Positions 7,372-48,186 of a stretch of 64,000 nt of DNA are shown piece after piece (positions within the stretch are counted from its first letter, which is position 1; each line of letters begins with the position of its first letter). The translations under genes and the position numbers were made by a program. The notes beneath the pieces are model-generated. The model was not told where the DNA came from. It worked only from the letters and a program-made list of their open reading frames with translations, and made no database searches. The stretch comes from an uncultured delta proteobacterium (lineage in GTDB: Bacteria > Myxococcota > Myxococcia > Myxococcales > Anaeromyxobacteraceae): NCBI GenBank assembly GCA_963814585.1, contig CAWFDF010000012.1, positions 352,001 to 416,000 on the forward strand, in the 5' to 3' direction.

Positions 7372-7383
7372 GGCCCGGGATTG

Positions 7384-9736: not shown

Positions 9737-9759
9737 GGCGCCTTGCTCCTCGCCGCCGC

Positions 9760-19268: not shown

Positions 19269-19272
19269 CGGG

Positions 19273-21096: not shown

Positions 21097-21109
21097 GACG
21101 AGGTGACTC

Positions 21110-27331: not shown

Positions 27332-29309
<1,978 letters not shown>

Positions 29310-29388: not shown

Positions 29389-29808
29389 CTAGAGCGCTCC
29401 GAAGAGCGCGGTGGCCACCCGGCCCAGCCCCTCGACCACGCCGGCCGGCCAGAGCAGCAGCGGCAGCGCCAGGCCGAACCCCATCCCGATGGCCAGCGCC
29501 CGCGGGTGCAGCCGCTCCTCGAGCCGCGCCTCCAGGGCCGAGACCCCGGTGAGCGTCAGCGTCAGCAGCCCGCCGGTCACGAAGGCCGCCGGGGGCGGGA
29601 AGCCGAGCAGCACCAGCCCCGCCGAGAGCGCCACCACCGCCGCGGCGTTGATGACGTCCCGGCCGTGGCCCGCCCACCAGGCCCGGTGCTCCTCGCGCCG
29701 CAGGTGCTCGCCCAGCTCCTCCAGCCGGACCGTCCCGGCCACCGCGGCCAGCAGGGCCAGCCGGGCCAGCAGCTGCTCGGCGTCGCCGCGCGGCTGGAGC
29801 GTCCACAT
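29389..29808 (-). CDS. Hypothetical membrane protein
   Basis: Three to four hydrophobic helices, GC3-rich frame. Confidence 0.6.
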   Translation of the reverse strand: MWTLQPRGDAEQLLARLALLAAVAGTVRLEELGEHLRREEHRAWWAGHGRDVINAAAVVALSAGLVLLGFPPPAAFVTGGLLTLTLTGVSALEARLEERLHPRALAIGMGFGLALPLLLWPAGVVEGLGRVATALFGAL

Positions 29809-30677: not shown

Positions 30678-31433
30678 TCAGTCCCTCGGCTCGCGCTCCA
30701 GCGCCGCCTGCACCAGCGCCACCAGGTCGCCGACGCGCCGCACCCGTGGCACCGCCGCCTCGTCGAGCGTCACGCCGAACCGCTCCTCGAGCGCCAGCAG
30801 GAGGCGCAGGGCCCCGAGCGAGTCCCAGCCCGCCAGGTCGTTCGGCCCCTGCTCCGGCGAGGGCGGCGCCGCCAGCGCCAGCGTCTCGGCCACCACCCGC
30901 GGCACCTCGGCGGCCGGGTCGTCGGCCGCCGGCTGCTGGCCCGGGCCGACGGGGCGCGCCGGCACGCCGCCGACGGTGGCGCCGGCCGGCACCTCACCGG
31001 AGACCACGCTGCCGGCCAGCACCCGGGCCCCGTCGCCGACCACGGCGCCTCGCAGCACCGTGACCCGGCTCCCGAGCCGGACCTGGCGACCCAGCGAGAT
31101 GGGGCTGCTCTCCGGGCGGGCCTCGCGCTGGCCGGCCACGTGGAAGTCGGTGTCGGCGATGGAGACGAAGGGGCCGATCCGCGTCCCGGCGCCGATGCGG
31201 ATGCGGGCGTGGGCGGCGACCGCGGCGCCGTGACCGATGGTGACGTCGTCGCCGATCTCGAGCTCACCGCCCGGGGCCACCACCAGGTGGGACTGGACCG
31301 GCACCGAGGCGAGGCGGAGCCGCTCCCCGACCACGAGCCGACCGCGGTTCTCGATCCAGGGTCGCCCGTCCAGCGCGGCGCCGGCGCCGAGCCGGTCGCA
31401 GCGGCGAAGCCAGAAGGCGGCCCGGAGCGTCAC
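30678..31433 (-). CDS. Hexapeptide-repeat (LbH) acyltransferase fused to C-terminal acyl carrier protein
   Basis: IGDDVTIG, IADTDFH, GGVPAR; ACP motif GWDSLGALRLLLALEERFGV; GTGA coupling to fkbH. Confidence 0.85.
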   Translation of the reverse strand: MTLRAAFWLRRCDRLGAGAALDGRPWIENRGRLVVGERLRLASVPVQSHLVVAPGGELEIGDDVTIGHGAAVAAHARIRIGAGTRIGPFVSIADTDFHVAGQREARPESSPISLGRQVRLGSRVTVLRGAVVGDGARVLAGSVVSGEVPAGATVGGVPARPVGPGQQPAADDPAAEVPRVVAETLALAAPPSPEQGPNDLAGWDSLGALRLLLALEERFGVTLDEAAVPRVRRVGDLVALVQAALEREPRD

Positions 31434-33667
31434 GCCCGCTCCCGCCGCCACTCCAGGTGGATGCAGGCCGGCAGCGCGAAGGGCTCCGAGACCTTCCAGC
31501 GGAACTGCTCCGGCCCGGGCGACTCCAGGCCGGAGCGCAGCCAGAAGTCGAGGCACGGCTTGTTCTTCTTGGTGGGCAGCAGCCGCGCCTCCAGGCTGGT
31601 GGCGCCGCCGCTCCGCGCCGTCTCCACGGCCAGGTGGACCATGGCCTCCTCGACCCGGCGGCCCATGACGCGGCAGGAGAGGACGTAGTCGACCACCCGG
31701 GCCGTGGCGCCGGACACCTCGACGCTGACGATGCCGGTCAGGCCGGCGTCGCCGAAGCGGTCGGCCACGCTCACCGCCCAGAGCGACCGGCCCGGCGCCG
31801 CGGCCCAGGCCACCAGCTCGGGCTCGGTGAGCCGGCGGGTGGCCAGGTTCATCTGGTTGGTCTTGTTGAGGAGCTGGGCGGTGCGCGCCAGGTTGCCGGG
31901 GCCGAGGGGCTCGACGGTGACGCGGATGTCGAGCTTCTCCAGCCAGTCGTCCATCGAGCCGACCTGGTCCATCAGCGTCTGGCGGGCCCGCTCCGAGGCG
32001 TAGAGCTGCGTCCGCTCGGCGTCCTCCCTGCTCACCGCCGGCACGTCGAAGCAGCGCAGCTGGGCCAGCGCCGACGGGTAGAGCAGCTTGTCCTCCGGCC
32101 AGTCGGGGACCAGCACCTCGGGCAGCGTCTCCCGCACCCGCCCGCGCTCCACCGGGTTGTCGTCGATGAAGACCACCGACTGAAGCCCCAGGTTGAGCTC
32201 GGCCACCAGCTCGGCGATGTTCCGCGCCTTGTCCTGCCAGTTGATGCGCCAGCCGACCAGGTCCTCCGGCTTGAGGACCATCTCCGGGTGGGAGCGCATG
32301 GCCTCGAGCGCGGTGGCCTCCTCGTTCTTGCTCACCACCGCCAGCACCACGCCGCGCCGGGTCAGCGCCTTGAGCTGGTGCTGGAAGCTGACCAGCGCCT
32401 CGCCCACCGGATCGTGGCCTCCCAGGCGCAGCCCCTGCCAGCCCACGTCCCCGACGATCCCGCCCCAGAGCGTGTCGTCGAGGTCGAGGACCACCAGCTT
32501 GGAGGCGCCGCCGGAGAGGCCGCGGAGGGCCGCCTTGAGGTCACGGGACGCCTCGGCCAGCACCGCGTCGCCGAAGGCCACCTTGCCGACGAACCAGGCC
32601 CGCGGGTTCTGGCCGCCGCGGCCGCCCACCACGGTCCAGCGCTGGGCATCGAGGACGAAGGCGTTGCCCACCGCCGCCAGCCGCTCCATGAGCCGCTGGT
32701 TCATGTCCGCCAGGGCCCGGGTGGCCCCGCCCGGGCGCGCGTCGATCAGCCCCAGGCCACGCCTCGCCGGCGGCAGGGTCCAGGTGGGCACGAAGAGCGC
32801 GCGCCAGCTCGCGGCCCCGCGCGCCAGCAGCTGCACGAAGGCGTCGACGTCGGCCCGCAGGGCCTCGGAGTCGACCGGCTCGTGGGCCAGCAGCCGGGCG
32901 AAGGCCGGCACGGCCGCCTCGGGACGGGTCCAGACCACGGCGAAGTCCGAGGTGTCCGGGGTGGGGCCCTGCAGCAGCGCCTGGGCCACCTGGCCGAACG
33001 GGGCCACCGCGGCCTGGACCGGCGGCCCATCGGCGCTGCCGGCGAGGTGGCGCGCCAGGTCGTCGACGGTGAAGTCGGCGATGAGCAGGCCGCGCGCGCT
33101 CCAGGCCGGTGTCGAGGCCTCGGCCGGTGCGGGCGCGGTGGAGGCGGGGCCGGCGGAGGGCGCCGCGGCCCCTTCGATCCGGCGCAGGACCCGCGCCGGG
33201 TTGCCGCCGGCCACCACCCCGGGCGGGATCTCGCCGGCCACCACGCTGCCCGCGGTGATGATGGCGCCGGCGCCGATGCGGCTGCCGGGCAGCACCGTGA
33301 CCCGGCCGGCCAGCCAGGCGCCCTCGCCGATCTCGACGGGCTGCGCCTCCTCGGCGCCCGCCCCGGGCACCTCGGTGTCCGACACCAGCACGTACTGGCC
33401 GAGCTGCACGCGGGCGCCGATTCGCACCTGCCGCGCCGCGGTGATGGCGGTGCCGAAGTTGACGTGGGTGCCCTCGCCGATCTCCAGGCGGGCCCCGGGG
33501 CCGCACTCCAGCGACACCCGGTTCCACCGCGAGTTGAGGAGGACGTCGTCGCCGATCTCCAGCGTCCCCCGGTTGACGATGCGCGGGAACCCGCTGGTGC
33601 GCACCCGGCGGCCACGCCGGGAGCAGGCCCGCAGCGCCAGCGGCGCCGTGGCCAGCTCCAGCGACAC
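31430..33667 (-). CDS. fkbH: LbH acyltransferase fused to FkbH-family (HAD-IIIC + GNAT-like) glyceryl-ACP synthase
   Basis: N-terminal LbH (GGNPARV); LDLDDTLWGG, SKN, INWQDKA, FIDDNPVER, KTNQMNL, DRFGDAG, LSCRVMGR; start may extend to ~33755. Confidence 0.9.
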   Translation of the reverse strand: MSLELATAPLALRACSRRGRRVRTSGFPRIVNRGTLEIGDDVLLNSRWNRVSLECGPGARLEIGEGTHVNFGTAITAARQVRIGARVQLGQYVLVSDTEVPGAGAEEAQPVEIGEGAWLAGRVTVLPGSRIGAGAIITAGSVVAGEIPPGVVAGGNPARVLRRIEGAAAPSAGPASTAPAPAEASTPAWSARGLLIADFTVDDLARHLAGSADGPPVQAAVAPFGQVAQALLQGPTPDTSDFAVVWTRPEAAVPAFARLLAHEPVDSEALRADVDAFVQLLARGAASWRALFVPTWTLPPARRGLGLIDARPGGATRALADMNQRLMERLAAVGNAFVLDAQRWTVVGGRGGQNPRAWFVGKVAFGDAVLAEASRDLKAALRGLSGGASKLVVLDLDDTLWGGIVGDVGWQGLRLGGHDPVGEALVSFQHQLKALTRRGVVLAVVSKNEEATALEAMRSHPEMVLKPEDLVGWRINWQDKARNIAELVAELNLGLQSVVFIDDNPVERGRVRETLPEVLVPDWPEDKLLYPSALAQLRCFDVPAVSREDAERTQLYASERARQTLMDQVGSMDDWLEKLDIRVTVEPLGPGNLARTAQLLNKTNQMNLATRRLTEPELVAWAAAPGRSLWAVSVADRFGDAGLTGIVSVEVSGATARVVDYVLSCRVMGRRVEEAMVHLAVETARSGGATSLEARLLPTKKNKPCLDFWLRSGLESPGPEQFRWKVSEPFALPACIHLEWRRERA

Positions 33668-34035
33668 GCTCAGCAGCTTGCGCGCCGTGGCGGCGAGCGA
33701 GCGCCCCTCCTGGCGAGCCAGGCCGCGCCTCAGCTTCTCGACGATGGTTCCCAGGACCGACTCCCCCCGACGCCGTCGCGGCGGCCTGCCCGCCCGCCGC
33801 GTCTCCCAGCGGCCCGCATTCCACCATCGGAGCCGGTCCCAGGCAACGCCCAGCAGGGGCCGTCATGACGCCCGGCCGGGCGCGCCAGGCCAGGGAGGGC
33901 GCCTGCGGGTCCCCTGTGGACGGGACACCACCGGGCGGTCGGCGGCCTGGGCCCCCCAACTTCGCGCCCTCCGGCGCGGTGGGCGCGGCTATCCTCCCCA
34001 TGACGGGGCGAGCCACCTCGCTCCAAGGAGATCTC

Positions 34036-35706
34036 ATGCTGGTCCGCCGACTCGCCGCAGCCCTGCTCCTCTCCACCGCTGGCCTGGCCGCCGCCCAGTC
34101 GCCGCCGGTCGTGGCCATGCAGGTCCAGTCCGGCGAGCCTCGCCCCATCTCGCGCTTCATCTACGGCCTCAACTGGGCGGAGCTGTCCCGGGTCTGGGGC
34201 TCCAAGGTCCCCCGCGGCATCACCCTCAACCGGTTCGGCGGCAACCGCACCAGCGCCTGGGACTGGGAGACCAACGCCTCCAACTGCGGCAACGACTGCG
34301 ACGACACCTACCAGAACGACGCCTACCTGGGCGGGCACGGCCCGGGTGGGGCCGTCAAGCCCAGCGCCGACTGGGCCTTCGCGCGCCAGGCCGGCCTCCT
34401 CGCCACCGTGCCCATGCTGGGCTGGGTGGCCGCCGACACCGCGGGCCCGGTCTCGCTCAAGACCCCCCTGGCCGAACGCCGCGCCAGGCGCTTCAAGGTC
34501 TCCAAGGCGAGGAAGGGAGCGCCCTTCGCGGCCGAGCCCGACACCTCCGACAAGTTCACCTACCAGGACGAGTTCGTGGCCTGGCTGGAGCGGACCTACC
34601 CGTTCGCCCGCACCGACCCGCTCCGGCCCATCTTCTACTCGCTCGACAACGAGCCCGACCTGTGGGGCTCGACGCACGAGGAGGTTCGCGGCGACCGGCT
34701 CTCGAAGAAGAAGTACGTCCTGACCGGCTACCAGGAGCTGGTGGACCGCTCCATCGAGTACGCCGCCGCCATCAAGGACGCCGCGCCCGGCGCCCTGATC
34801 TTCGGGCCGGCGCTCTCGGGCTGGAACGGCTACCAGAACCTCTACCACAACGACGCCCCCGACCCGGCCGGCCGCCAGTTCTTCCTGGCCTACTACCTGG
34901 AGCGGATGCACCAGGCCGGGCAGGCCCAGGGGCGACGCCTCCTCGACGTGCTCGACGTCCACTTCTACTCGCAGGTGAACAGCACCCGCCACCAGTCGGT
35001 CGCCAACGAGTGGGCCGAGCAGGACTCGACCATGATCCAGGCCCGGGTCCAGGCGCCGCGCTCGCTCTGGGATCCGACCTACCGGGAGCGGAGCTGGCTC
35101 ATGGACGTCACCAGCGGCCCGCTCCGCCTCCTGCCCCGGCTGCGCGACCTGATCGCCAGGCACGCCCCGGGCACGCGCCTCGCCATCACCGAGTACTCGT
35201 ACTACCGGGGCGGCGACATCTCCGGCGGCATCGCCCAGGCCGACGCCCTCGGCATCTTCGGCCGCGAGGGGGTCTTCGCGGCCACCCTCTGGCCGCAGGG
35301 GGCGCGGTGGGCCTACCAGGGCGACCTCGACAAGACCTACGCCTGCGCCATGGCCGCCTTCCGCGTCTACCGGGACTACGACGGGCAGGGCGCGGCCTTC
35401 GGCGACCTGTCCCTCCCCGCCAGCACCGTCGACGTGGAGCGGACCAGCATCTACGCCAGCGGCGACAGCACCGACCCGGGCCGGCTGGTGCTGGTGGTCA
35501 TCAACAAGACCGAGGGACCGCTCGACGCCGACATCTCGGTCCCCGGGGGCTCGACCGGCGGCAAGGCCCAGGTCTGGCGGCTCACCGGCGGCATCGGCCG
35601 CTGCACCGGGCCCGAGCGGGTGGCGCCCGACGTGGCGGTGGTGGGCGGCACCCTGGTGGTCCGGCTGCCGGCGCTCAGCGTCTCGACCGTCGTGCTGCGG
35701 CGCTGA
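34036..35706 (+). CDS. Secreted glycoside hydrolase family 44 (endoglucanase-like)
   Basis: Signal peptide; ISRFIYGLN, RFGGNRTS, LDNEPDLW, LDVLDVHFY, RVQAPRSLWDP, AITEY, AQADALGIFG. Confidence 0.88.
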   Translation: MLVRRLAAALLLSTAGLAAAQSPPVVAMQVQSGEPRPISRFIYGLNWAELSRVWGSKVPRGITLNRFGGNRTSAWDWETNASNCGNDCDDTYQNDAYLGGHGPGGAVKPSADWAFARQAGLLATVPMLGWVAADTAGPVSLKTPLAERRARRFKVSKARKGAPFAAEPDTSDKFTYQDEFVAWLERTYPFARTDPLRPIFYSLDNEPDLWGSTHEEVRGDRLSKKKYVLTGYQELVDRSIEYAAAIKDAAPGALIFGPALSGWNGYQNLYHNDAPDPAGRQFFLAYYLERMHQAGQAQGRRLLDVLDVHFYSQVNSTRHQSVANEWAEQDSTMIQARVQAPRSLWDPTYRERSWLMDVTSGPLRLLPRLRDLIARHAPGTRLAITEYSYYRGGDISGGIAQADALGIFGREGVFAATLWPQGARWAYQGDLDKTYACAMAAFRVYRDYDGQGAAFGDLSLPASTVDVERTSIYASGDSTDPGRLVLVVINKTEGPLDADISVPGGSTGGKAQVWRLTGGIGRCTGPERVAPDVAVVGGTLVVRLPALSVSTVVLRR

Positions 35707-35719
35707 GAGGGACGGGCCC

Positions 35720-37006
35720 ATGGGAGACCGCATCCAGCAGGGCGCCGCGGCAGGGCGGCCACCCATGGTCCTGGGCAACGCCGACTTCGGGGGGACGCTG
35801 GCGGCCACCCGATGCCTCGGCGCCCACGGCGTGCCGGTGCTGCTGCCCGGAGCCGCCCGGCTCGATCCGGCCCGCTGGTCGCGCCACGCCCGGCGCATCC
35901 AGGCCCCCTCGGATCCCGAGCAGCTGGTCACCTGGCTGCTCGACGAGGCGCCCCCCGGCCTGGTGGTCTACCCGACCTGCGACGACCTGGCCTGGCTTCT
36001 GGCCCGCGACCGCGACGCGCTGGGGCGCCGCCATCACCTCTACTCGCCGCCGCTGGCTGCCGTCGAGGCGCTGCTCGACAAGCGGCGGCTCCACGAGCTG
36101 GCGCGTGCCGTCGGCCTGGCCTGCCCCGAGACCTGGTACCCGCGCGACGAGGCCGAGGCGACACGGCTGGCGCCCGAGCTCCCCTTCCCGGTGCTCCTCA
36201 AGCCGCGCACCCAGGTGCTCTCGCGCTCCCACACCAAGGGCTTCCGCGCCGCCAGCGCCGGGGAGCTGCCGGCCGCCTGGCGCGCCGCCAGCGGGGAGCT
36301 GCGCTACGCGCCGTCGTTGCTGGAGCGGATCCCCGGGGCCGCCGTCCCCCTGCTCCAGGCCTACCACCGCGACCGGTCCGACCGGATCACCAGCGTGGCG
36401 GGCTTCGTCGACGAGGGGCAGCGCCTCTTCGTGGCCCGCGCCTCCACCAAGGTGCTCCAGTCGCCGCGCGGGCTCGGGATCGGCATCTGCTTCCAGTCCA
36501 CGCCGCTCGAGCCGGCGCTGGCCGACGCCATCCAGGCGCTCTGCGCCGCGGCCGGCTACCACGGCGCCTTCGAGGTCGAGCTGCTGGCGGGCGACCCGCC
36601 CCTGCTGATCGACTTCAACCCCCGGTTCTACGGGGAGCTGGCCTTCGAGGTGGCCCGCGGGCTCCCCTCGCCGTGGCTCGTCTACCTGGGCGCGCTCGCC
36701 GATGGCCCGGCGCTCGAGGCCGAGGTGGCGCGGGCCCGGGCCGCGCCCGTCCACCAGGACGCCATCTTCTGCAACAAGCTGGCGGCGCGGATCGACCTCT
36801 GCAGCCAGGCCCTGGCCGGCGTGGTGCCGGTCGGCGAGGCGCTCCGCTGGAGGCGCTGGTACCTGGACCACCGCCACCGGGCCGTCGATCCCTACGAGGA
36901 GCGGGGCGATCCCGGCCCGCTGATCGCGCAGTGGATCTCGGTGGCGACCGGGGTGCTGCGCCATCCGCGCGCCTTCCTGCGCCAGCGGGTCTGGGGCCGC
37001 ATCTGA
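35720..37006 (+). CDS. ATP-grasp carboxylate-amine ligase (D-aspartate ligase-like)
   Basis: YPTCDD, LLDKRRL, FPVLLKP, LLQAY, GAFEVE, LLIDFNPRF. Confidence 0.82.
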   Translation: MGDRIQQGAAAGRPPMVLGNADFGGTLAATRCLGAHGVPVLLPGAARLDPARWSRHARRIQAPSDPEQLVTWLLDEAPPGLVVYPTCDDLAWLLARDRDALGRRHHLYSPPLAAVEALLDKRRLHELARAVGLACPETWYPRDEAEATRLAPELPFPVLLKPRTQVLSRSHTKGFRAASAGELPAAWRAASGELRYAPSLLERIPGAAVPLLQAYHRDRSDRITSVAGFVDEGQRLFVARASTKVLQSPRGLGIGICFQSTPLEPALADAIQALCAAAGYHGAFEVELLAGDPPLLIDFNPRFYGELAFEVARGLPSPWLVYLGALADGPALEAEVARARAAPVHQDAIFCNKLAARIDLCSQALAGVVPVGEALRWRRWYLDHRHRAVDPYEERGDPGPLIAQWISVATGVLRHPRAFLRQRVWGRI

Positions 37007-37086
37007 TGGCGCTGGCCACGGCCTGGCCCCGGCCGGGCCGGTGGCCGTGGTACGCTGCCCCGGAAGCCACCAGAACGGGGGCTCCC

Positions 37087-37437
37087 GTGAGCAAGCCTGA
37101 TGAAGCCCTGGGACGACGCCACTTCCGGCGCTTCGACGCTCCCATCACGGTCCGGCCGGTCAGCATCCTGGCGAGGGCGATCCCCCGCCGGGTCAACGAC
37201 GTCAGCCTCGGCGGCGTCCGCGCCTACTCCGACGAGCGCTACAGGATCGGCAAGCGGCTCGAGCTGGAGCTGGCCTTCCCCGATGGCGAGAGCGCCACGG
37301 TGCTCGCCGAGGTGGTCTGGGTCGAGGCCCTGCCGGAGGGCGCCCCGGCCCGCTTCGACGTGGGTATGCGCTACGTGGACACCACCGCACATGACCTCAC
37401 CCTTCTCCACCGGGCCCTCGGCCTGCCAAGCCCATGA
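37087..37437 (+). CDS. Stand-alone PilZ domain protein
   Basis: RxxxR (RHFRR) and DVSLGG motifs, AEVVW, GMRY. Confidence 0.85.
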   Translation: MSKPDEALGRRHFRRFDAPITVRPVSILARAIPRRVNDVSLGGVRAYSDERYRIGKRLELELAFPDGESATVLAEVVWVEALPEGAPARFDVGMRYVDTTAHDLTLLHRALGLPSP

Positions 37438-37583
37438 GAGGAAGCGGGTGTTCCCGCTGTCCACCGCGCGCGGGACTCCAGGCGGGGGCGCGGCCCACGG
37501 GGGGCCACGCCACGCGGCCCGGCTGCGTGGTAGGACTACGAGCAATTTCACCACGTCACGACCACATTCCCGAGTCCACTCCG

Positions 37584-38210
37584 ATGCTCTCGTCGCTCCG
37601 TCGCCTCAAGCCGTCCCTCGGCCTCCTGCTCCTCGCACTGGCCGGCTGCGCCACCGGTGAGTTCGTCTGGGTCGACGCCATCCCCGACGAGCTGTTGCCG
37701 ACCGAGACCGAGTACCTCATCGCCCCGGCCGACGTGCTCAACATCCGCGTCTTCGGTCAGGACACCATCTCCGGCAAGGTGAAGGTCCGCAGCGACGGCA
37801 AGATCTCGTTGCCGCTCCTCAACGACCAGGTGGCCGCCGGGCTGACGCCGGGGATGCTGGCCCGCATGCTGGCCGCCGACCTCAAGACCTTCGTGGTCAA
37901 CCCCGTGGTCACGGTGGCCGTCGAGGAGACCCACCCGCTCCAGGTGTCGGTGCTCGGGGAGGTGGTGAAGCCCGGCGTCTACAAGCTGGAGCCGGGCGCC
38001 GAGGTCCTCACCACGCTGGCGCTGGCCGGCGGCCTCACCCCCTTCGCCCGCCGCGACGGGATCTACGTGCTGCGCCGGCTGCAGGGCGCCGACAACAACT
38101 CCAGCGCCAAGCCGCTGCGGATCCGCTTTCGCTACAACGCGCTGATCCGGGCCGAGGGACGCGCGGCCGCCTTCCGCCTGCAGGACGGCGACGTGCTGGT
38201 GGCCGAGTAG
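37584..38210 (+). CDS. wza: Polysaccharide export OPX lipoprotein, short form (Poly_export + one SLBB)
   Basis: Lipobox LAGC; YLIAPADVL, DGKISLPL, VLGEV, AGGLT; ends LQDGDVLVAE without OM helix. Confidence 0.88.
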   Translation: MLSSLRRLKPSLGLLLLALAGCATGEFVWVDAIPDELLPTETEYLIAPADVLNIRVFGQDTISGKVKVRSDGKISLPLLNDQVAAGLTPGMLARMLAADLKTFVVNPVVTVAVEETHPLQVSVLGEVVKPGVYKLEPGAEVLTTLALAGGLTPFARRDGIYVLRRLQGADNNSSAKPLRIRFRYNALIRAEGRAAAFRLQDGDVLVAE

Positions 38211-38213
38211 CGG

Positions 38214-39422
38214 ATGCCGGCCGGGCCCCTGGTCCTCTGCGCGCTGCTCCAGCTCACCGAGGGCCAGGTCACCGCCTACGCGGTCGCCGCCCTGTCCGAG
38301 GCCCGGGGCCTGGCCCTGATCCAGCAGGGGACCACGACCCTGGTGGCCGAGCTGGAGGTCGACCCGCGGGTGGCCCTCCAGCTCGACACCCTGACCCTCA
38401 ACCTCGGGGCCGCCTACGCGCCGCGCCTCTGGGTCTCGACGCAGGCCAGCGGGCTCCAGGTGCTCCACCGCGCCGCGATCCAGGCCTCCTGGAGGCCCGA
38501 TCCGCTCCTGCGCCTGCTGACCTCGGCCACCGGGTCCGTCGGCACCTCCAACCTGCTGGCCCCGGCGCTCGCTGGCCCGGGCGGCACGCCTCCCGGACCG
38601 CTCCAGTCGGTCGGGTTGCAGACGCGGATCCCCTACGTCTACGGCGAGGTGGCGGCCGGCCTGGATGCGACGCCGACGCGGCGGACCCGGGTGGCGCTGG
38701 GCGGCGCCTACGTGGTGGACGGCGGGGCCGACGCCAAGGCCCAGCTCACCTACCCACAGCAGCGCGGCCCCAACGGCTCGCTGGCCTTCGACTGGCAGAT
38801 GAATGCGGACGACCGCCTCGACACCCTGGTGACCACCCTGCGTCGCTCCTTCACGACCGGCGCCGTCGATCCGGTCACCGGGGCCTCGCTCCAGAGGCCG
38901 CCGGTCTGGGTCGGCAGCGTCTCCGAGACCTGGCGGCGGAAGTACGACGTGAAGCTCTCCACCTGGGTTGGAGGGGGCGCCTCCCTCACCACCACCGAGC
39001 TGCTGGGAGGGGACGTCAAGGTCAAGAAGGTCACCCCGCTCGTCGACATCGGGGGCCAGTACCTCGACGAGGACGGCCTCAAGGGGCTGCGCCTCTCCTT
39101 CCGCTACGCCCCGGTCGTCGATACCGTCTCGGGACGCGTCTACCAGCGCGCCGATTCCTTCCTCCTCGGGAACTGGGCGACCACGCAGAGCTGGCGCATG
39201 GTGGGCCAGCTGAGCACCGCCGTGGTGGTGGGCGGCTTCCAGTCCGGGCAGCTGAATCTCTTCGGCGAGGGCCGGATGGCCCACGTCCTGACCCGCGACC
39301 TGGAGCTGACCTGGGGGCTGCGGGGCACGCTGCAGCGGCCGCCCGGGACCTCCCTGGCCGCCTCCTACCAGCAGTGGGGGATCTTCGTGGCGCTGGCCTA
39401 CCAGCAGCGCGGCGCGATCTGA
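38214..39422 (+). CDS. Predicted outer-membrane beta-barrel partner of OPX (EpsX/ExoB-like)
   Basis: 3 bp after wza; many amphipathic strands; ends WGIFVALAYQQRGAI. Confidence 0.65.
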   Translation: MPAGPLVLCALLQLTEGQVTAYAVAALSEARGLALIQQGTTTLVAELEVDPRVALQLDTLTLNLGAAYAPRLWVSTQASGLQVLHRAAIQASWRPDPLLRLLTSATGSVGTSNLLAPALAGPGGTPPGPLQSVGLQTRIPYVYGEVAAGLDATPTRRTRVALGGAYVVDGGADAKAQLTYPQQRGPNGSLAFDWQMNADDRLDTLVTTLRRSFTTGAVDPVTGASLQRPPVWVGSVSETWRRKYDVKLSTWVGGGASLTTTELLGGDVKVKKVTPLVDIGGQYLDEDGLKGLRLSFRYAPVVDTVSGRVYQRADSFLLGNWATTQSWRMVGQLSTAVVVGGFQSGQLNLFGEGRMAHVLTRDLELTWGLRGTLQRPPGTSLAASYQQWGIFVALAYQQRGAI

Positions 39423-39425
39423 GCC

Positions 39426-39593
39426 ATGCCTCGCCTCGTCGTCGCCAGCATCCTCCTGCTGCTGATCGCCGCCCCGCTCCTGGCGGCGCGAGATCCCCAT
39501 CCCATCCGGGCCATGCGCCGGCTCCTGCTCTACGTCGTGCTCGTCCACGTCGCCTACGCCTTCGCCGTCCTGGTCATCTATCCCCGTGTCTGA
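39426..39593 (+). CDS. 55-aa two-TM small protein (below ORF-track cutoff)
   Basis: MPRLVVASILLLLIAAPLLAARDPHPIRAMRRLLLYVVLVHVAYAFAVLVIYPRV*; fills the gap and overlaps wzy start. Confidence 0.65.
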   Translation: MPRLVVASILLLLIAAPLLAARDPHPIRAMRRLLLYVVLVHVAYAFAVLVIYPRV

Positions 39594-41160
39594 CCACGCC
39601 CAGCCCGCCTTCCCGGCCGACACGCTGCGCCCTCCGACACGCCCGGACCGGGCCACGCTGCTCGCCTGGGGCGGCAGCGCCGCCCTGGCCGCGGCCCTGC
39701 TGACGGTCTCGGGCGGCAACCCGGCGGTGGTGGCCGGGCTGGTCCTGGCGGCGGTCGTCGGCTGGGCGATCTGGCGGCTTCCGCTCTACGTGCCCGCCAC
39801 CGGCCTGCTCCTGGCGACCCAGCTCATCGACGACCCTGCCTCCAGCCCGGGCGGCGGGGTCTGGGTCTCGCCGATCGCCCCGGTGGCCGAGCTCCTCTAC
39901 GACAACCTCCACAAGTTCACCGGCATCAGCGCGCTCCGCTTCTCCATCCTCGACCTGATGGTGGTGGGGCTGCTCCTGCTGGCGCTCCTGCGCCGCATCC
40001 TCGGCACCGCGGCGCGCGAGGGGGTGGCGCCGGCCCCGGCCCCCTTCACCGCCGTGGTGGTGGGCGCCTTCCTGGCCCTGCTGGTGTCGCTGGCCTGGGG
40101 GCTGTCGCGGGGCGGCGACTTCCGCTCCTCGCTCTGGCAGCTGCGCCAGCTCCTCGCCCTGCCCCTGGTGACGCTGCTGTTCCTGGTCTCGCTGCGCGGC
40201 CCCAGGGATCTCAAGCTGCTGGGCACGGTGCTCATCGGGGCCGGCCTCGCCAAGACCGCCCTGGCGGTGTGGATCACCGAGACGGTCTTCCGGCCCCAGA
40301 ACGTCAGGCCCCCCTTCGTCACCACCCACGCCGACTCCATGCTCTTCGCCCTCGCCTTCATCGCCGTGCTGGCGATGTGGAACGAGCAGCGAACGCGGCG
40401 GACCTGGACCCTGCTGCTGGTGGCCGGGCCGCTGCTGCTGCTCGCCATGAAGGTCAACAACCGGCGGCTGGTCTTCGTCGAGGCCGCGGCGGCCCTGGTC
40501 ATGATCTTCCCGCTCCTCCCCTGGACCCACCTCAAGCGCAAGGTGATGCGCGCCGTCATCCTCTCCATCCCGGTGGGGATCCTCTATCTCGCGGTCGGCT
40601 GGAACTCGACCGCGAAGATCTTCGCGCCGGTCAAGATCGTCCGCTCCATCGCCGAGCCCGAGACCGACCGGTCGACGGCCATGCGGGACATCGAGAACTA
40701 CAACCTGACGGTCACGTTCCGCACCAACCCGCTCCTCGGCGTGGGCTTCGGCCACCCCTACGTCGAGCAGGTGAAGGCCGACGACATCTCGATGATCTTC
40801 CCGCTCTACCGCTACATCCCGCACAACAGCGTGCTCGCCATCTGGGCCTTCTGCGGCACGGCCGGCTTCGCCGCCATCTGGCTGCCCATGCTGGCCGGGC
40901 TCTTCCTGGCGGCTCGGACCTACCGGCGGAGCGGCGAGCCGATCCACCGGGCCGCCGCCCTGACGGCCGGCTCGATGGTGGTCATCCACCTGATCCAGGC
41001 CTGGGGCGACATGGGCATCCAGGCCTGGTCGGGCGTCTTCCTCATGGCGGCCTGCCTGGCCTCGGTGGCGCAGCTGGCGGTGGCGGTGGGCGCCTACCCG
41101 GCCCCACGCCGGCGGCTCGCGCCCGGGACCTCGCTGGCGCCCGGCCCGGGGGCAGCGTGA
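39586..41160 (+). CDS. wzy: Wzy-type polysaccharide polymerase (O-antigen ligase family)
   Basis: >10 TM; NPLLGVGFG and YIPHNSVL Wzy_C-like motifs. Confidence 0.8.
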   Translation: MSDHAQPAFPADTLRPPTRPDRATLLAWGGSAALAAALLTVSGGNPAVVAGLVLAAVVGWAIWRLPLYVPATGLLLATQLIDDPASSPGGGVWVSPIAPVAELLYDNLHKFTGISALRFSILDLMVVGLLLLALLRRILGTAAREGVAPAPAPFTAVVVGAFLALLVSLAWGLSRGGDFRSSLWQLRQLLALPLVTLLFLVSLRGPRDLKLLGTVLIGAGLAKTALAVWITETVFRPQNVRPPFVTTHADSMLFALAFIAVLAMWNEQRTRRTWTLLLVAGPLLLLAMKVNNRRLVFVEAAAALVMIFPLLPWTHLKRKVMRAVILSIPVGILYLAVGWNSTAKIFAPVKIVRSIAEPETDRSTAMRDIENYNLTVTFRTNPLLGVGFGHPYVEQVKADDISMIFPLYRYIPHNSVLAIWAFCGTAGFAAIWLPMLAGLFLAARTYRRSGEPIHRAAALTAGSMVVIHLIQAWGDMGIQAWSGVFLMAACLASVAQLAVAVGAYPAPRRRLAPGTSLAPGPGAA

Positions 41161-42786
41161 ACGACCTGGCCGCGCCGATCGCCCCTCGCCTGAGCGTGGT
41201 CATCGCCACCTTCAACCGGCTCCCCCTGCTCGGCCGCCTCCTGGACCAGCTGGCCGATCAGTCCCTGGCCGGGGAGGCCTACGAGGTGGTGGTGGTCGAC
41301 GACGGCTCGCGCGAGCCGGTGGCCCCGGCCCTGGCCGGCCGCACCTTCCCCTTCGCGCTGCGGGTCGAGACCCAGGCCAACGCCGGGGCCGCCGCGGCGC
41401 GCCACCGCGGCATCCTGGCCGCGGCGGCGGGCCTGCTGGTCCTCGTCGACGACGACATGCAGGTCCCGCGCGACTTCCTGGAGCGTCACCTGGAGGCCCA
41501 CCCGGAGGGGAGCCGCTGCGCGGTGCTCGGCGCCATCCACCCGCCACCCGACGTCGGCCGCATGCCCATCTTCGAGCGCTGGCACCAGCGCATGCTCGAG
41601 GACCTCGCCACCCGCAGCCGGTCCGGCGTCCGCCCGCGCGGCAACGAGGTCTACACCGGCAACCTCTCGCTGTCGCGCGACGACTACCTGGCGGTGGGGG
41701 GCTTCGACCCCTCACTGGGCCACTCCGAGGACGCCGAGCTGGGGCTGCGGCTGGAGAAGGCCGGCATCCGCATCGACTTCAGCGACGAGGCCTCCACCAT
41801 CAACGGCTCCGACCACGCCAGCCTGGCGCGGTGGCGGCGGCGCTCCGAGCTCTACGGGATCTTCGACTCCCGCATCGCGCGCAAGCACCCCGAGGTGCTC
41901 CATGCCAGCCCCTGGCGCTTCTGGCCCAGGCTGCAGCGCATCTCCCGGCCGCTCCTGCTCGGCACCGCGCTGGTGCCGCCGGTCTCGCGGCTGGTGGCGG
42001 CCCTGGTGGCCGGCGTCTCGATGGCCTGCGCCGGGCTCGGCCTGGAGCGGCTGGCCCTGGCCGGCACCACGCTGGCCTACGGCATCGACTACTACCGGGG
42101 CGTGCGCCTCGAGGCCGGGTCGGCGCGCGCCTTCCTGTCGGAGCGCCGCGCCGCCTTCCTGGCCATGCCGGCCGCCCCGGTCCAGCCTGGGCGCTGGCGG
42201 CGCTTCCGCGAGGACCTGCGCGCCGACCAGGCCATCATCCGCCACTACGAGTCGCGCTATGGCCACCACGCCGGCTCGACCGGGCGATGGCTCGTCGACG
42301 TCATCACCAAGATCGGCCTGCAGGAGATGGCCGCCGTCCGCTGGATGCGGCTGGTGCGGGACCTCCGCGTCCCGCTCGGGGCCAAGCTGACCTCCCGGCT
42401 GGTCCGCCACCTCTACGGCTCGGACATCCACTGGGACGCCGAGTTCGCCCCGGGGGTGGTGCTGGTCCACGGCTTCGGGCTGGCCATCAGCCACGCCGCC
42501 CGCATCGGGCCAGGCTGCATCCTCTTCCAGAACGTCTGCCTGGGGATGGGGATCTCTCCCGCCACCCGGGAGACCGGCGCCCCGCGCCTCGAGGCCAACG
42601 TCCACGTCGGGCCAGGCGCCACGCTCCTCGGGCCCATCACCGTCGGCGAGGGCTCCAGAGATCATGGCCGGCGTCACGCTCACCTTCTCGGTGCCCCCCG
42701 GGTCGGTGGTCGAGGCGCCGACCCCGGCGGTGCGCGGCCGCACCCGCGCGGCGCCCCCGGCGGCGAGCGGAGATCCGGCGCCGTGA
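41157..42786 (+). CDS. GT2 glycosyltransferase fused to serine-acetyltransferase-like LbH domain (apparent frameshift ~42658)
   Basis: SVVIATFNR, DDGS, VDDDM, GGFD...ED; then LYGSDIH..A...GVVLVHGFG...IGPGC...GPITVG; corrected frame ends TGA 42786. Confidence 0.8.
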
Positions 42787-43610
42787 GCGAGACAGGCCCT
42801 GGCGCCCAGCCGCGGGGCGACGCGGCGGCAGGCCCCGACCGCCTCGTCATCGGCGACGTCCCGATCGATCCCGTCACCTTCGAGGGGGCGCTCGCCGCCA
42901 TCGAGGCGCTGGTGAAGGGTGGCCGGGGCGGATCGGTCTTCACCCCCAACGTCGACCACGTGGTGATGGCCGACCGTCACCCCGAGTTCCGCGCCGCCTA
43001 TGCCGCCTGCAGCCTCTCGCTGGTGGACGGCATGCCGGTGCTGTGGGGCTCGCGGGTGCTGGGCCGGCCGCTGCCGGAGAAGGTCTCCGGCTCCGACCTG
43101 GTGGTCCCGCTCTGCGAGCGGGCGGCGGCCCGGGGCTGGCGCGTCTACCTGCTGGGCGGCGCCCCGACCGCGGCTCGCCTGGCGGCCGCCGAGTTCGAGC
43201 GGCTCGGCCTCCAGGTGGTCGGGATCGACGACGGCCGCATCGACCTCTCGCCGGCCGGGGTCGCGGCGGCGAGCCAGGCCGCCCAGCGGGTCCGCGCCAG
43301 CGGCGCCCAGCTCCTGCTGGTGGCCCTCGGCGCTCCCAAGCAGGAGCTCTTCATCCACCGGCACCGGGCCGACCTCGGCCCGGTGGTGGCGGTCGGGGTG
43401 GGGGCCAGCCTCGACTTCGTGGCCGGCCTGGTGCGGCGCGCCCCGGCCTGGATCTCCCGGACCGGGCTGGAGTGGCTCTACCGGCTGGCGCAGGAGCCGC
43501 GGCGCCTGGCGCGGCGGTACCTGGTCGAGGACCCGCGCTTCCTCCTCATCCTCTGGCGGACCTGGCGGTCCCGGGGGCGTCCGCGCCCGCCCGGACCTCC
43601 CACGGCGTGA
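42783..43610 (+). CDS. WecB/TagA/CpsF (GT26) glycosyltransferase
   Basis: TPNVDH, DGMPV, EKVSGSDL, ALGAPKQE, GVGASLDF, GLEWLYRLAQEPRRL; GTGA overlap. Confidence 0.92.
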   Translation: MSETGPGAQPRGDAAAGPDRLVIGDVPIDPVTFEGALAAIEALVKGGRGGSVFTPNVDHVVMADRHPEFRAAYAACSLSLVDGMPVLWGSRVLGRPLPEKVSGSDLVVPLCERAAARGWRVYLLGGAPTAARLAAAEFERLGLQVVGIDDGRIDLSPAGVAAASQAAQRVRASGAQLLLVALGAPKQELFIHRHRADLGPVVAVGVGASLDFVAGLVRRAPAWISRTGLEWLYRLAQEPRRLARRYLVEDPRFLLILWRTWRSRGRPRPPGPPTA

Positions 43611-43644
43611 GGGCCCGGGCGGCGCCGGCTGCCGGGCGCGGCGC

Positions 43645-45092
43645 TCAGTGCGCCCCGCGCGACCGGAGCACCGCCGGGATGGTCTGGGCGACGATGCTGA
43701 CGTCGCGCCACAGTGACCAGTTGTCGATGTAGGCCAGGTCGAGCGCCATCCACTGCTCGAAGTCGATGTCGTTCCGGCCGCTCACCTGCCAGGTGCAGGT
43801 GATGCCCGGCCTGACGCTGAGGCGTCGCCGCTGCCACCGCTTGTACTGCGCCACCTCGGCCGGCACCGGTGGGCGAGGCCCCACCACGCTCATCTCGCCG
43901 ACCAGGGCGTTCCAGAACTGCGGCAGCTCGTCGATCGAGGTGCGGCGGATGAAGCGGCCCACCTTGGTGATGCGCGGGTCGTTGGTCATCTTGAAGACCG
44001 GGCCGCTCATCTCGTTGAAGGCCCGCAGCGACTCGAGGCGCTTCTCGGCGTCGGCGAACATGCTGCGGAACTTGAGCATGTCGAAGGAGCGGCCGTTCTG
44101 CCCGACGCGCCGCTGCCGGAAGAAGACCGGCCCCGGCGAGTCGAGGCGGATGGCGATGGCGGTCGCCGCCAGGACGGGCGACAGCACCACCAGGGCCGTG
44201 AAGCTCACCACCACGTCGAAGACCCGCTTGAGCGCCAGGCCGAAGGCGTTGGTGGGGGTCCTGGTCAGCGCCAGCGTCGGGAGGCCGCCGACGTCCTCGA
44301 CCGACATGCTGGCCGGCCCGCTGTAGAGCATGTCGAGGCCGATGCGGACGCCGACCCCGAGATCCTCGCAGGTGGCGATGGCGTCCTCCAGGTCGTTCAT
44401 CCGGTCGCGCGTCACGGTGAAGACCACCTCGTCGACGACGTGCTCCTTGAGGATGGTCTCGAGCTCGGAGACCCGCCCCAGCACCTTCCCGGTGCTGGGC
44501 GCCAGGGCCAGCTCGTCCATGAGGATGTGCCCGGCGAAGCAGTAGCCCCACTGCGGGTGCTCGGCGAAGCGCTCCACCATCTGATCCGAGAGCGTGCCGG
44601 TGCCGACCACGGCGTAGACGTGGCCATTGTAGCCGCGGCGGCGGGCGGCCCGGGCGCTGTAGCGCAGGACGGTCCGGCTGATGACCATCGCCGCGACGGC
44701 CAGGACCATGTAGAGGACCAGGAAGAGACGCGACACGTCCTGCTGCTGCTTGGCGAGGAAGCCCAGCGCGGTGATGCCGATCCCGGTCGAGATCCCGGCG
44801 CGCAGCAGGCGGCCCAGCTCCGAGCCGAGCGGCCGCAGCCGGTAGACGTCGTAGACCTCGAACAGCCAGGAGGCCAGCAGCCAGGTGAGCAGCGTGGCCG
44901 TGGCCAGGGTGGCGTAGCGCTCCACCGGGTACGGGCCACCGTAGCTGTGGAGGAAGACGTCCCGGAGCCTGAGGGCCACGGGCAAGGCGACCACGAAGGC
45001 CGCCAGGTCAAGATCCGGATCCCGGTGTCGACCAGCCGGGCGTGCTCCTTGAGCCTGGAGTGACACGGCCTCGCCGGCGTGAACTTCATCAT
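43645..45092 (-). CDS. Polyprenyl-phosphate hexose-1-phosphate transferase (WcaJ/EpsZ-like; apparent frameshift ~45012)
   Basis: KRVFD, FKMTNDPRIT, TSIDELPQF, MSVVGPRP, RPGITCTWQVSGRN, DLAYIDNWS; start uncertain. Confidence 0.92.
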
Positions 45093-45182
45093 GGTGCTGC
45101 CCCCCTGCAACCGACCGATTCGACTGCGGCCGCCGCCCCCCTGGCGACGGCCTCCTTCAACTCGAGCTGACCTCGCCCGCGC

Positions 45183-46379
45183 TCATGGCACGGGCTCCCT
45201 CGGCGTTCGTTCCCAGACCAGGCCTGGCGATGGCGCCGTCGTGGCGCGCAGCCGCCAGACCAGGTAGACGGGCGCCCAGGCCAGGCTCCCCACCCCCCGC
45301 AGGCCCAGCCCGGAGGCGACGCACCCCCGCACCACGTACAGGCCGAGCGCCGCCAGGCTGGCCCACCAGGGCCAGGCGCCGGCCGGCACGGCGCCGGTCA
45401 CCAGCGTCCAGGCCAGGGCCAGCGACGAGCCCAGCGTCGCCACCGCCACCAGCCTGGAGAGCGGAGGCACCAGCAGGTCGATCGCCAGGTCGAGGAGCAC
45501 GGCGTCACGGCGCACCAGGCCGCCGCGGAGCAGCGGCCCGGCGAAGCGGCGAGCCATGGCCGCCCGCCCGCCCTCCCAGCGCCGGCGCTGCGTGGCGCTG
45601 GCCCGGGACCCGGTGGGCATCTCTCCGACCGCCGTGGCCTCGTCGACGTAGTGGACGCGGTGACCGGCCAGGCCGAGCCGGATGCCGTACTCGAGATCCT
45701 CCACGACCGAGAAGGCGTGGTGCGGAACCTGCCGCAGCAGCCTGGTCGAGAAGCACATCCCGTTGCCGCGAAGGCCGGCCGAGAGGCCGAGCCGCTCGCG
45801 ACCCAGGGAGCGCACGTCGTGGAAGAGCGAGAGGGCCAGGGCCATCAGCCGGGTCCGCCAGGAGGCCTCCGGGTTGCGGACGCCGTAGCGGGCCTGCAGC
45901 GCGGTGGCGCCGGCCTCGAGGCGGGCGGCGAAGGCCTGCAGCAGGTTGGGGGAGACGACGGTGTCGGCGTCGACCACGACCACCGCGTCGGCACGGCCGT
46001 CGGCCAGGCACCGCTCGAAGGCGTGGGCGAGCGCATAGCCCTTGCCCCGGAGGGTCGCGTCCCGACGCTCCAGCACGGTGGCGCCGGCGGCTCGCGCCCG
46101 CGCCGCGGTGTCGTCGCTGCAGTTGTCGGCCACCACCACCACGCGCCGCTGGGCGGCGGGCCAGTCGACCTGCAGGAGGCTGCCGACGGTGGCGGCGATC
46201 CCGGCCGCCTCGTCATGCGCGGGGACCACCAGATCGAAGCGCAGCGCCGTGACGCCGTGGCGCGGCGCCGGTGGCCGGCGCGACAGCAGCGCCAGGAGTC
46301 CCAGGTAGCCGGCCGCGAGCAGCACGGGGATGGCCGTCACCAGGAGCGCCAGGCTTGCGATGTCAGTGGGCGAGATCAT
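45183..46379 (-). CDS. Membrane GT2 glycosyltransferase
   Basis: VPAHDE, ADNCSD, GKGYAL, DAD, VED, QRRRW. Confidence 0.88.
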   Translation of the reverse strand: MISPTDIASLALLVTAIPVLLAAGYLGLLALLSRRPPAPRHGVTALRFDLVVPAHDEAAGIAATVGSLLQVDWPAAQRRVVVVADNCSDDTAARARAAGATVLERRDATLRGKGYALAHAFERCLADGRADAVVVVDADTVVSPNLLQAFAARLEAGATALQARYGVRNPEASWRTRLMALALSLFHDVRSLGRERLGLSAGLRGNGMCFSTRLLRQVPHHAFSVVEDLEYGIRLGLAGHRVHYVDEATAVGEMPTGSRASATQRRRWEGGRAAMARRFAGPLLRGGLVRRDAVLLDLAIDLLVPPLSRLVAVATLGSSLALAWTLVTGAVPAGAWPWWASLAALGLYVVRGCVASGLGLRGVGSLAWAPVYLVWRLRATTAPSPGLVWERTPREPVP

Positions 46380-46650
46380 TCACTTTCCGTACACGTCAGC
46401 GGAAGTGAGAGTACCGGACACACGGACTCTCCAACAGTCACGTGAACACGGGGACCCATGACGGGGTGTGCACGAGCGCTTGCGGCACGTTGCCCCGGTG
46501 GCCCGACGCGCAAGCCGGCGGCGGGCCGGCCGCGGCCCGGAAGGCGGCCACGGCCCGGGCCGTGTCCCCCGTTCATGCGACGGATGTCGGCGTGCGCCAT
46601 GCGGTTCAAGGACCGCCGGGGCGGAGCTCTGTGACGCGGACCGTTGGGGC

Positions 46651-48186
46651 CTACCCGCCTGCTCCACCCGCGGCGCGCCCGCGCAGCGCCCCGCGCATGA
46701 AGGCCACGGTCTCGCCGACGTTCACCGCGCCGGTGGCCAGCGCCAGCACCACGTAGCAGGCGGCGTCGAGCGCCAGGCGCCACGAGCCGAGGGGCGCGGC
46801 CAGGACGTGGACCCCGACCGTGGCCAGGGCCACCAGCGCCGTCCGGGCGATGCGTCCCAGGCTGCCCTGGTCGAAGAGCCGGCGTCCCACCAGGCCCAGC
46901 ATCCAGGCGGTGACCACCGTCTCGCTGGTGAGGATCGCCACCGCGCAGGCCACGCTGCCGGCGCCGGGGCGATCGAGGGCCCGCATGATGGGGCCGAGGA
47001 AGGCCAGGTTGAAGGCGGCGTCGATGCTGATCCCCATCAAGGTGAGCCTGGTCACGGCCCAGGCCCGCCCCTGCACGTTGAGCACGTAGGCGCAGAGGAT
47101 GTTGACGTAGGTGATGAGCAGGGTCGGCGCGATGATGGCCAGGCCGGCGGCGGCCGGCACGTAGGCCTGGCCGAAGAGGACGCGGATCGAGAGGTCGGCC
47201 CCGAGGGCGATGGCGAGCGAGACCGGCGTGGCCAGGGTCAGCACCAGCACCAGCGAGCGTCGGGCCAGGTCGTCGAGCTCCTCGGTCGAGCGGGCGCCGG
47301 CGCGCGCCAGGAGCGGCAGCAGCACCGAGCCGAGCAGCGGCATGGCCAGCAGCGCCAGCCCGCCGATGGTGTTGGCGGCGCCGTAGTACCCGACCTCGAC
47401 GCGATTGGCGGCCACCGCCAGGAAGCTCACGTCGAGCTTGCTGAAGATGGTCAGCAGCACGGTGTTGCCGAGGAAGGGGAGGCTCTGGAGGAGCGTGTAC
47501 CGCACCGCCGGCCAGTCGAGGCGCAGGCGCACCCCGAGGTGCCGGCGGACCAGCGACCAGAGGACCGCCAGCCGGGCCGCCTCGGTGACGGCCAGCGGCA
47601 CCACGAAGGCCCACACCTCGGCCTTCATCACCATGGCGACGAAGAGGCCGCCGGCCCACGCCACCTTGGAGGCGACGTTGAGGATCGACAGGGCGTCGAC
47701 CTTGCTGACCGACTGGAGCAGCCCCGCCAGCGACGTGTTGTTGGCGGTGATGAGCTGGGCGGCCGCGAAGATCCAGACCAGCACCTGCACCGACGCCGGG
47801 CGCCCGGTGACGTGCAGGATGACGGCCATGACCGGCACCATGACGGCGGCCAGGCCCAGCCTCACCAGCATCACCCCGCCGAGGAAGTCGGAGGCGTGGG
47901 CAGGCCGGACCGAGACCTCGCGGTAGATGTACGGCTCGATGCCCAGGGTCAGGCCGACGAAGAACGTGGCCGAGAAGGCGTCGGCGAAGTTGAAGTCGCC
48001 GAAGTTGGCCGGGCCGAGGTGGCGCGGCAGGAACAGCCGCACCCCGAGGGCGATGCCCCAGGTGAGGAGCAGCGAGACGCTGAGCTTGAGGGCGTTGCGG
48101 ACCGCCACCGCCCGATCCGTCCTGGCATCGCGAAGCAGCGTCCCACCCGGAGAGACCGGACCAGGATTGGCCGGTCCCTCGCTCAT
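46651..48186 (-). CDS. wzx: Wzx-type flippase
   Basis: ~12-14 TM, RHLGPANFG, EVGYYGAA. Confidence 0.85.
   Translation of the reverse strand: MSEGPANPGPVSPGGTLLRDARTDRAVAVRNALKLSVSLLLTWGIALGVRLFLPRHLGPANFGDFNFADAFSATFFVGLTLGIEPYIYREVSVRPAHASDFLGGVMLVRLGLAAVMVPVMAVILHVTGRPASVQVLVWIFAAAQLITANNTSLAGLLQSVSKVDALSILNVASKVAWAGGLFVAMVMKAEVWAFVVPLAVTEAARLAVLWSLVRRHLGVRLRLDWPAVRYTLLQSLPFLGNTVLLTIFSKLDVSFLAVAANRVEVGYYGAANTIGGLALLAMPLLGSVLLPLLARAGARSTEELDDLARRSLVLVLTLATPVSLAIALGADLSIRVLFGQAYVPAAAGLAIIAPTLLITYVNILCAYVLNVQGRAWAVTRLTLMGISIDAAFNLAFLGPIMRALDRPGAGSVACAVAILTSETVVTAWMLGLVGRRLFDQGSLGRIARTALVALATVGVHVLAAPLGSWRLALDAACYVVLALATGAVNVGETVAFMRGALRGRAAGGAGG

Follow-up and report, generated by a model that had tools for sequence, protein, structure and literature searches.

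Glyceroyl groups decorate gellan and glycans of Tannerella, Campylobacter and Vibrio, and among left-handed beta-helix (LbH) enzymes LpxA and LpxD take their acyl group from an acyl carrier protein (ACP). As of 2017, the genetic basis of glyceroyl substituents was called unresolved and their genes unidentified (PMC5378307). FkbH domains load D-1,3-bisphosphoglycerate onto a carrier and dephosphorylate it (PMC8949500), and in LbH acyltransferases of the maltose/galactoside O-acetyltransferase (MAT/GAT) type the active-site Trp is contributed by the subunit next to the one with the His (PMC3046976). Here we describe a pair of genes that brings these elements together, found in a 64,000-nucleotide stretch of DNA (the window) from an uncultured member of the Anaeromyxobacteraceae (assembly GCA_963814585.1, contig CAWFDF010000012.1, positions 352,001 to 416,000). 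ORF1 fuses an LbH domain to FkbH, and ORF2 fuses an LbH domain to an ACP. We propose, with a probability of roughly 0.5 (0.52 by our own estimate), that the pair is an optional glycerate-decoration module for myxobacterial exopolysaccharide (EPS), acting through a predicted mixed LbH trimer with a composite active site.

Two coupled genes join a loader and a carrier to LbH domains

The core of ORF1 (residues numbered from GTG 33667) is a clear FkbH, scoring 260.4 bits against TIGR01686 (curated cut-off 146.65) and matching PDB 3slr (BF1531) at E 5.9e-42. D395, D397, T399, K447, K480, D502, D503 and C665 are each found in 120/120 aligned LbH-FkbH homologues, and the HAD motifs and the Cys of the C-terminal SCR motif, which we take to be the glyceryl carrier, are intact in all 23 loci that carry the pair. 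The 120 listed homologues are 56-87% identical to ORF1; here and below, the homologue sets are the best 120 of 413 and of 2504 for the two genes, top matches that include the window protein's own cluster and are therefore mutually related. Preceding the core, residues 188-388 resemble Pfam FkbH_N (PF21211) by language-model features only (score 0.95, ESM Atlas clusters, where PF21211 is annotated on 20-29% of members of the matched clusters), with conserved DFT and WTRP motifs. The N-terminal LbH domain matches PF00132 at 31.4 bits (cut-off 27). ORF1 probably starts at CTG 33754, upstream of its first GTG, because a GGAG lies 6 nt before that codon, G+C at third codon positions is 0.93 over the 29 added codons and the homologues have a median length of 783 aa. 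A search of the genome turned up no other FkbH. Among the matches listed for the pair proteins, the closest with a name are from Anaeromyxobacteraceae, and an Aggregicoccus protein (P0162) also figures among the homologues.

The GTG of ORF2 overlaps the TGA of ORF1 as GTGA, with a GGAG upstream. In a Pfam scan run with a 41-codon 5' extension, ORF2 matched PF00132 at 36.7 bits (over cut-off) and PP-binding (PF00550) at 24.6 bits (cut-off 20.8). In alignments to ACPs of known structure (E 2.4e-6), Ser205 of its WDSL motif falls on their DSL; it is kept in 118/120 aligned homologues, and two ACP domains occur in four of the 120 listed (the five longest were checked). An ORF2 start at GTG 31556 was rejected, as homologues measure about 250-260 aa and a Shine-Dalgarno sequence accompanies the GTGA overlap; so was the idea that the LbH fusions are an assembly artefact, as nearly all of the 120 best homologues per gene span the whole fused protein. 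A promoter scan found 0 against 0 expected, and a protein search for longer homologues returned no four-domain fusion of the pair (three matches, hence weak evidence).

These results bear out the observations of a preliminary description of the locus, which had recognized coupled LbH-FkbH and LbH-ACP genes with an intact DSL serine, divergent from a GH44-wza-wzy operon, in a window free of polyketide synthase (PKS), nonribosomal peptide synthetase (NRPS) and MBOAT genes. TIGR01686 and PF00550 both exceed their cut-offs, the adjoining divergent genes form an eps-type cluster that includes epsB (GH44), epsY and wzy, and none of the three enzyme types was seen among the window genes scanned.

The His and Trp of the active site lie on different genes

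Among solved structures, both LbH domains are closest to MAT/GAT enzymes. Trp118 of ORF1 aligns with the Trp of the VWIG motif in those structures; it is accompanied by RVT and GxPAR motifs in LbH-FkbH proteins and kept in 119/120 homologues (the single miss is a fragment). None of these 120 has a His at the D+4 position of the catalytic loop, and only six have any His within eight residues of it. ORF2 homologues show the reverse, with the catalytic His98 in 120/120 and the Trp in 2/120; a second His, His49, is kept in 119/120. The GxPAR motif of the CoA site is kept in both LbH domains, and the His/Trp split also holds across the pair loci. All 17 stand-alone LbH relatives examined have both residues. 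Neither ORF1 nor ORF2, therefore, has the His and Trp in one polypeptide as a self-sufficient MAT/GAT-type homotrimer does.

As adjacent subunits supply the His and the Trp in solved trimers, we predict a mixed LbH trimer with a composite site. A homotrimer of either LbH domain would be without a canonical site, a mixed trimer is predicted to restore one, and a 2:1 or 1:2 trimer would hold one complete site of three. The hexapeptide LbH fold itself is assigned in both ORFs from sequence only. In a tree of 74 LbH rows, which leaves out the stand-alone relatives with both residues, ACP-fused His-types group with the His-types of a tandem family described below (99/93), and the Trp-types are not resolved as one clade.

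The two genes are strictly paired and linked to eps genes

An LbH-ACP gene directly follows LbH-FkbH in 22 of 22 other loci (21 whole, one cut at a contig end), each with the ACP Ser intact. Named loci include Polyangiaceae and Gemmatimonadaceae, the others being kin from several Myxococcota families. Full-length LbH-ACP was found in 14 of 401 genomes of the phylum; 12 of these have a whole LbH-FkbH, one has an FkbH cut by a contig end and one is degenerate. Orthologues of eps genes (at least 100 bits) lie in the fetched flanks of 15/22 pair loci and 0/68 unfused-FkbH loci, a comparison in which the pair loci include close kin and the control loci, mostly from other phyla that may not have this eps cluster, are confounded by phylum. 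As background, 0.8% of the window's own genome falls within 10 kb of eps-type genes. (Two duplicate rows, L096 and L099, were left out of the counts in favor of L127 and L128; short search loci L001-L006 and L104-L110 were replaced by longer fetches; L045, with FkbH cut at the contig start and no LbH-ACP after it, was counted as unfused.) Viewed by Pfam, Wzx/Wzy-type or eps genes lie close to the pair at 16 of the 22 loci; the rest comprise one with GT87/GT2, one on a short contig and four with none of these. Of 92 genomes in the family, six carry the pair, and all six belong to the 26 that are EpsU-positive (P=3e-4, ignoring kinship); of 12 same-genus genomes, none has the pair and five have EpsU. 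On these counts the pair is an accessory of the eps pathway rather than part of its core.

We also looked for other uses of a glyceryl-ACP in the window's own genome (91.7% complete). It yielded neither an NRPS condensation domain nor an MBOAT, and a single full-length ketosynthase (KS) match; no polyketide or peptide assembly line for FkbH to feed was thus found.

A proposed load, carry and transfer scheme

In the scheme we favor, a host phosphopantetheinyl transferase (PPTase) would prime Ser205, and FkbH would, by analogy with established FkbH chemistry, load D-glycerate from 1,3-bisphosphoglycerate to give glyceryl-S-ACP. The LbH hetero-trimer would form and keep loader and carrier together; His98 would then activate a sugar hydroxyl, and the composite site would pass on the glyceroyl group. 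The target would be a lipid-linked repeat unit or nucleotide sugar, O-acylated in the cytoplasm before the Wzx flip, and the eps cluster is the presumed source of this acceptor. We prefer O-acylation because O-acetyltransferases are the closest solved structures and the pair neighborhoods scanned showed no DegT-type aminotransferase.

The preliminary description had already pictured a load/carry/transfer system, and that picture is supported by the intact FkbH and ACP motifs, the strict pairing, the linkage to eps genes and the failure to find a PKS/NRPS sink. Its account of two LbH acyltransferase domains needs a correction: they are not two independent transferases, each being without one of the two canonical active-site residues. 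More specifically, we suggest as a tentative possibility that the pair encodes an obligate hetero-oligomeric LbH acyltransferase, its site split over two genes, that serves as a scaffold for a carrier and a swappable loader (FkbH or adenylation enzyme).

Natural variants of the pair

The mixed trimer is favored because the His/Trp split is complementary, because some relatives fuse the two LbH types in one chain and a tandem family repeats the arrangement, because one pair has decayed in a genome without FkbH, and because a pair with a swapped loader adjoins epsB. At L184, a Trp-type and a His-type LbH form one chain encoded between epsB and epsD, and P0033 is a similar fused chain. The separate tandem family has His-type and Trp-type LbHs at eight loci, three of them as single chains. 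Near-complete genome G042 (99% complete, no FkbH) retains a copy of the pair (L141) from which the Trp, the two His and the Ser of the ACP have all been lost. G051 has a second LbH-ACP copy that is degenerate too. At L178 of G374 (7349-10384), LbH-AMP-binding and LbH-ACP genes lie beside epsB, with an adenylation enzyme in the place of FkbH, which suggests the same eps slot but a different acyl group on that EPS. P0243 has LbH, ACP and AMP-binding domains in one chain.

Four of the eight tandem loci (L142, L181, L182, L183) lie by NadE-like genes, together with asparagine-synthetase and/or AMP-binding genes and a gene of 82-94 aa, which at L142 has an ACP-like motif; these appear to be another cassette of Myxococcota that is linked to a carrier. 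LbH or LbH-ACP genes in a degenerate state also occur directly upstream of epsZ-like priming transferases (L141:5967-7354, L179:3909-4643, L146:1698-2174, L147:6896-7450), possibly as non-catalytic or regulatory remnants. At one Planctomycetota locus (L103:9665-10807), the gene next to FkbH belongs to a different LbH family whose C-terminus is ACP-like, suggesting an independent fusion.

Alternative readings

Several points weigh against the proposed module, whose support comes from sequence and genome context. Close kin among the pair loci and a control drawn mostly from other phyla weaken the linkage counts, and in the tandem family three of the eight Trp-types do carry a His, within a loop that is shortened. 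The only PPTase found in the genome is of AcpS size (127 aa); a PPTase gene lies near the pair at two of the 22 other loci (L132 and L029). The structure of M. xanthus EPS was given as unknown in 2020 (PMC7484181), and we found no report of glycerate on myxobacterial EPS. Other points bear on the three alternatives below.

The first of these keeps the glycerate decoration but makes the His-type LbH-ACP the whole transferase, either as a homotrimer or with a scaffold-only partner; the Trp would have been lost as the donor became ACP-bound, and the FkbH-fused LbH would just dock the loader. The Trp is tied to acetyl-CoA-using LbH enzymes (PMC3046976) and might be dispensable for one that uses an ACP, and His49 offers an additional conserved residue in ORF2. 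The loader-fused LbH of G374 has neither His nor Trp, indicating that a partner LbH can be pure scaffold, and the His-type domain retains the Trp as well in G374 and in the second domain of P0033. However, Trp118 with RVT and GxPAR is present in 119 of 119 LbH-FkbH domains, G374 retains the Trp in its ACP-fused LbH exactly where the partner lost it, and His-types without Trp are found in 8/8 tandem pairs and at L184, several with no ACP in the fetched flanks. The G374 variant thus supports hetero-assembly and a swappable loader, yet keeps a scaffold-only partner alive. On balance we find this alternative unlikely, and glycerate on EPS, by either the mixed trimer or this route, likely.

A second alternative, which we regard as quite unlikely, would send the C3 acyl group elsewhere, to a lipid, a protein, a small molecule or a different glycan, or transfer it as 3-phosphoglyceroyl or as an amide to an amino sugar. 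N-glyceroyl sugars do exist (PMC5378307). Seven of 22 pair loci are without eps orthologues in their fetched flanks, two of them adjoining a fatty-acyl reductase-like multidomain gene and one GT87/GT2, and EpsU was not matched in pair-bearing genomes G429 and G430 (completeness not stated). Against this, eps linkage holds for most pairs, in several families and with differing gene orders, and EpsU is encoded elsewhere in 5/5 tested genomes in which the pair is on a short contig or not adjacent to eps orthologues. Also against it are the intact HAD phosphatase motifs, closest structures of the O-acetyltransferase kind and the lack of DegT-type aminotransferase genes in the scanned pair neighborhoods.

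Finally, it is improbable that the LbH domains form a hetero-oligomer acting as a plain O-acetyltransferase that uses acetyl-CoA while FkbH-ACP feeds an unrelated pathway: L184 does retain both half-sites in an eps cluster with no fused FkbH or ACP (the FkbH of that genome is on another contig) and GxPAR is present in both domains, but FkbH and ACP are both fused to LbH domains, the searches for condensation domains, KS and MBOAT found no other consumer of glyceryl-ACP in the genome, and His, Trp and ACP Ser decayed together in FkbH-less G042, though this is one genome.

The neighboring eps cluster and other features of the window

The features of the locus are collected in Table 1.

Table 1. 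Coordinates of the gene pair, its domains and the adjoining cluster in the window.
Feature	Position	Strand	Details
ORF1, Trp-type LbH + FkbH fusion	31430..33754	-	774 aa from CTG 33754; 745 aa from first GTG 33667 (31430-33667)
LbH domain 1	33173..33667	-	Trp118 at 33314-33316 present, catalytic-loop His absent
FkbH N-terminal domain, FkbH_N-like, function not assigned	32513..33094	-	ESM Atlas features, DFT and WTRP motifs
FkbH core	31532..32506	-	HAD motifs DLDDT (Asp395), SKN, K480, DDN; C-terminal LSCRV Cys665
ORF2, His-type LbH + ACP fusion	30678..31433	-	251 aa
LbH domain 2	30945..31433	-	His98 in DTDFH (31140-31142), second conserved His49, Arg119 at Trp position
Acyl carrier domain	30696..30914	-	WDSL Ser205 at 30819-30821
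Myxobacterial eps-type Wzx/Wzy cluster	34036..49913	mixed	NCBIfam Eps models and Pfam

The plus strand of the cluster carries epsB (GH44), an ATP-grasp-like gene, a PilZ gene, epsY, epsX, wzy and epsD-C-A, and the minus strand epsZ, epsU, wzx and epsV, an eps gene set as in PMC7484181. The genes match M. xanthus-type NCBIfam models, with EpsD alone passing its equivalog cut-off. EpsD, EpsC and EpsA share one reading frame (41157-43610, plus strand); EpsD-EpsC fusions occur in relatives, and the join to EpsA may be real or an assembly error. In the same window (70-79% G+C), groEL (27651-29058) and lysA (50710-52073) look split by frameshifts, suggesting indel errors in the assembly. The ATP-grasp-like gene (35720-37006, plus strand) has a homologue near the pair at L025 and could be another EPS-tailoring ligase. 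A Methyltransf_24 gene past the far end of the cluster (52089-52808, plus strand) was not seen beside other pairs. A gene for a MauG-like di-haem cytochrome c peroxidase recurs near the pair at eps-type loci L131, L133, L134, L027, L031 and L178. A second glycan-related group (16842-23262, minus strand) consists of GT2, TPR-PIG-L deacetylase, TPR and ATP-grasp genes. Downstream of the pair, the genes at 29837-30613 and 29389-29808 were considered as module members and left out, because they have no family match and are not shared with other pair loci.

Comparison with known systems

If the proposal is true, the pair would be a miniature glycan-tailoring assembly line fitting one slot of myxobacterial eps clusters, and would give bacterial glycans a first biochemical route to their glyceroyl groups. 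As a self-contained and apparently soluble two-gene module, it makes glyceroyl genetics testable in vitro with two proteins, and it predicts that myxobacterial EPS, which social motility requires, has a chemical variant. An LbH acyltransferase with a split site would be an exception to the homotrimer rule of its enzyme family, and would mean that a single LbH gene without the His or the Trp does not have to be dead. Such split pairs seem to occur again in a second family, which is linked to ACP.

Each part of the module is known, including FkbH at a glycan locus (C. jejuni cj1302, an FkbH-domain gene in the flagellar glycan locus; PMC7099621). No paper on LbH-FkbH/LbH-ACP double fusions or split-site LbH acyltransferases was found in a search that mostly did not extend to subscription journals.

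LpxA and LpxD, to which the preliminary description had likened the LbH domains, turn out to be poor models: both domains are of MAT/GAT type, LpxD models reach only 22-33 bits where their cut-offs are 207-242.5, no LpxA model is among the matches listed for the pair, and the pair has a dedicated, fused ACP. Its other comparison, with gellan as a glyceryl-substituted EPS, holds only as an analogy; gellan carries L-glycerate, whereas FkbH uses D-1,3-bisphosphoglycerate. The glycerate ester itself does exist on that EPS (PMC7009714).

The MAT/GAT, NeuO and OatWY O-acetyltransferases share with the pair the hexapeptide fold, the loop-His and VWIG-Trp positions and sugar-type closest structures, but they are homotrimers that use acetyl-CoA and have both residues in the same chain, whereas here the residues are on two genes and an ACP-bound donor is predicted. 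Glyceryl-ACP loaders of the FkbH/OzmB type (PMC8949500, PMC3679948), which serve methoxymalonyl-ACP formation and the NRPS pathways of vioprolide and cystomanamide, have the same TIGR01686 core, HAD motifs and adjacent carrier; ORF1 differs in being a long form with an FkbH_N-like domain and an LbH fusion, at a glycan locus of a genome in which no PKS/NRPS was found. Relatives with unfused FkbH cassettes encode a small ACP-like protein together with GNAT, MBOAT, AAC(3)-like or LbH genes, and have neither the double LbH fusion nor, at any of the 68 loci, myxobacterial eps orthologues.

For the architecture alone there is an analogy in the gamma-carbonic anhydrase of plant complex I, a zinc enzyme rather than an acyltransferase, which is an LbH heterotrimer with one complete site among three interfaces (PMC8290278). 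The Pls/PosA poly-amino-acid synthetases follow the same load/carry/transfer logic, and the pair has weak TIGR02353 matches. In these enzymes three non-identical beta-helices are modeled to pack as a pseudo-trimer that acts after the carrier domain (PMC10522769), but in a single membrane-bound chain with an adenylation loader and a polypeptide product.

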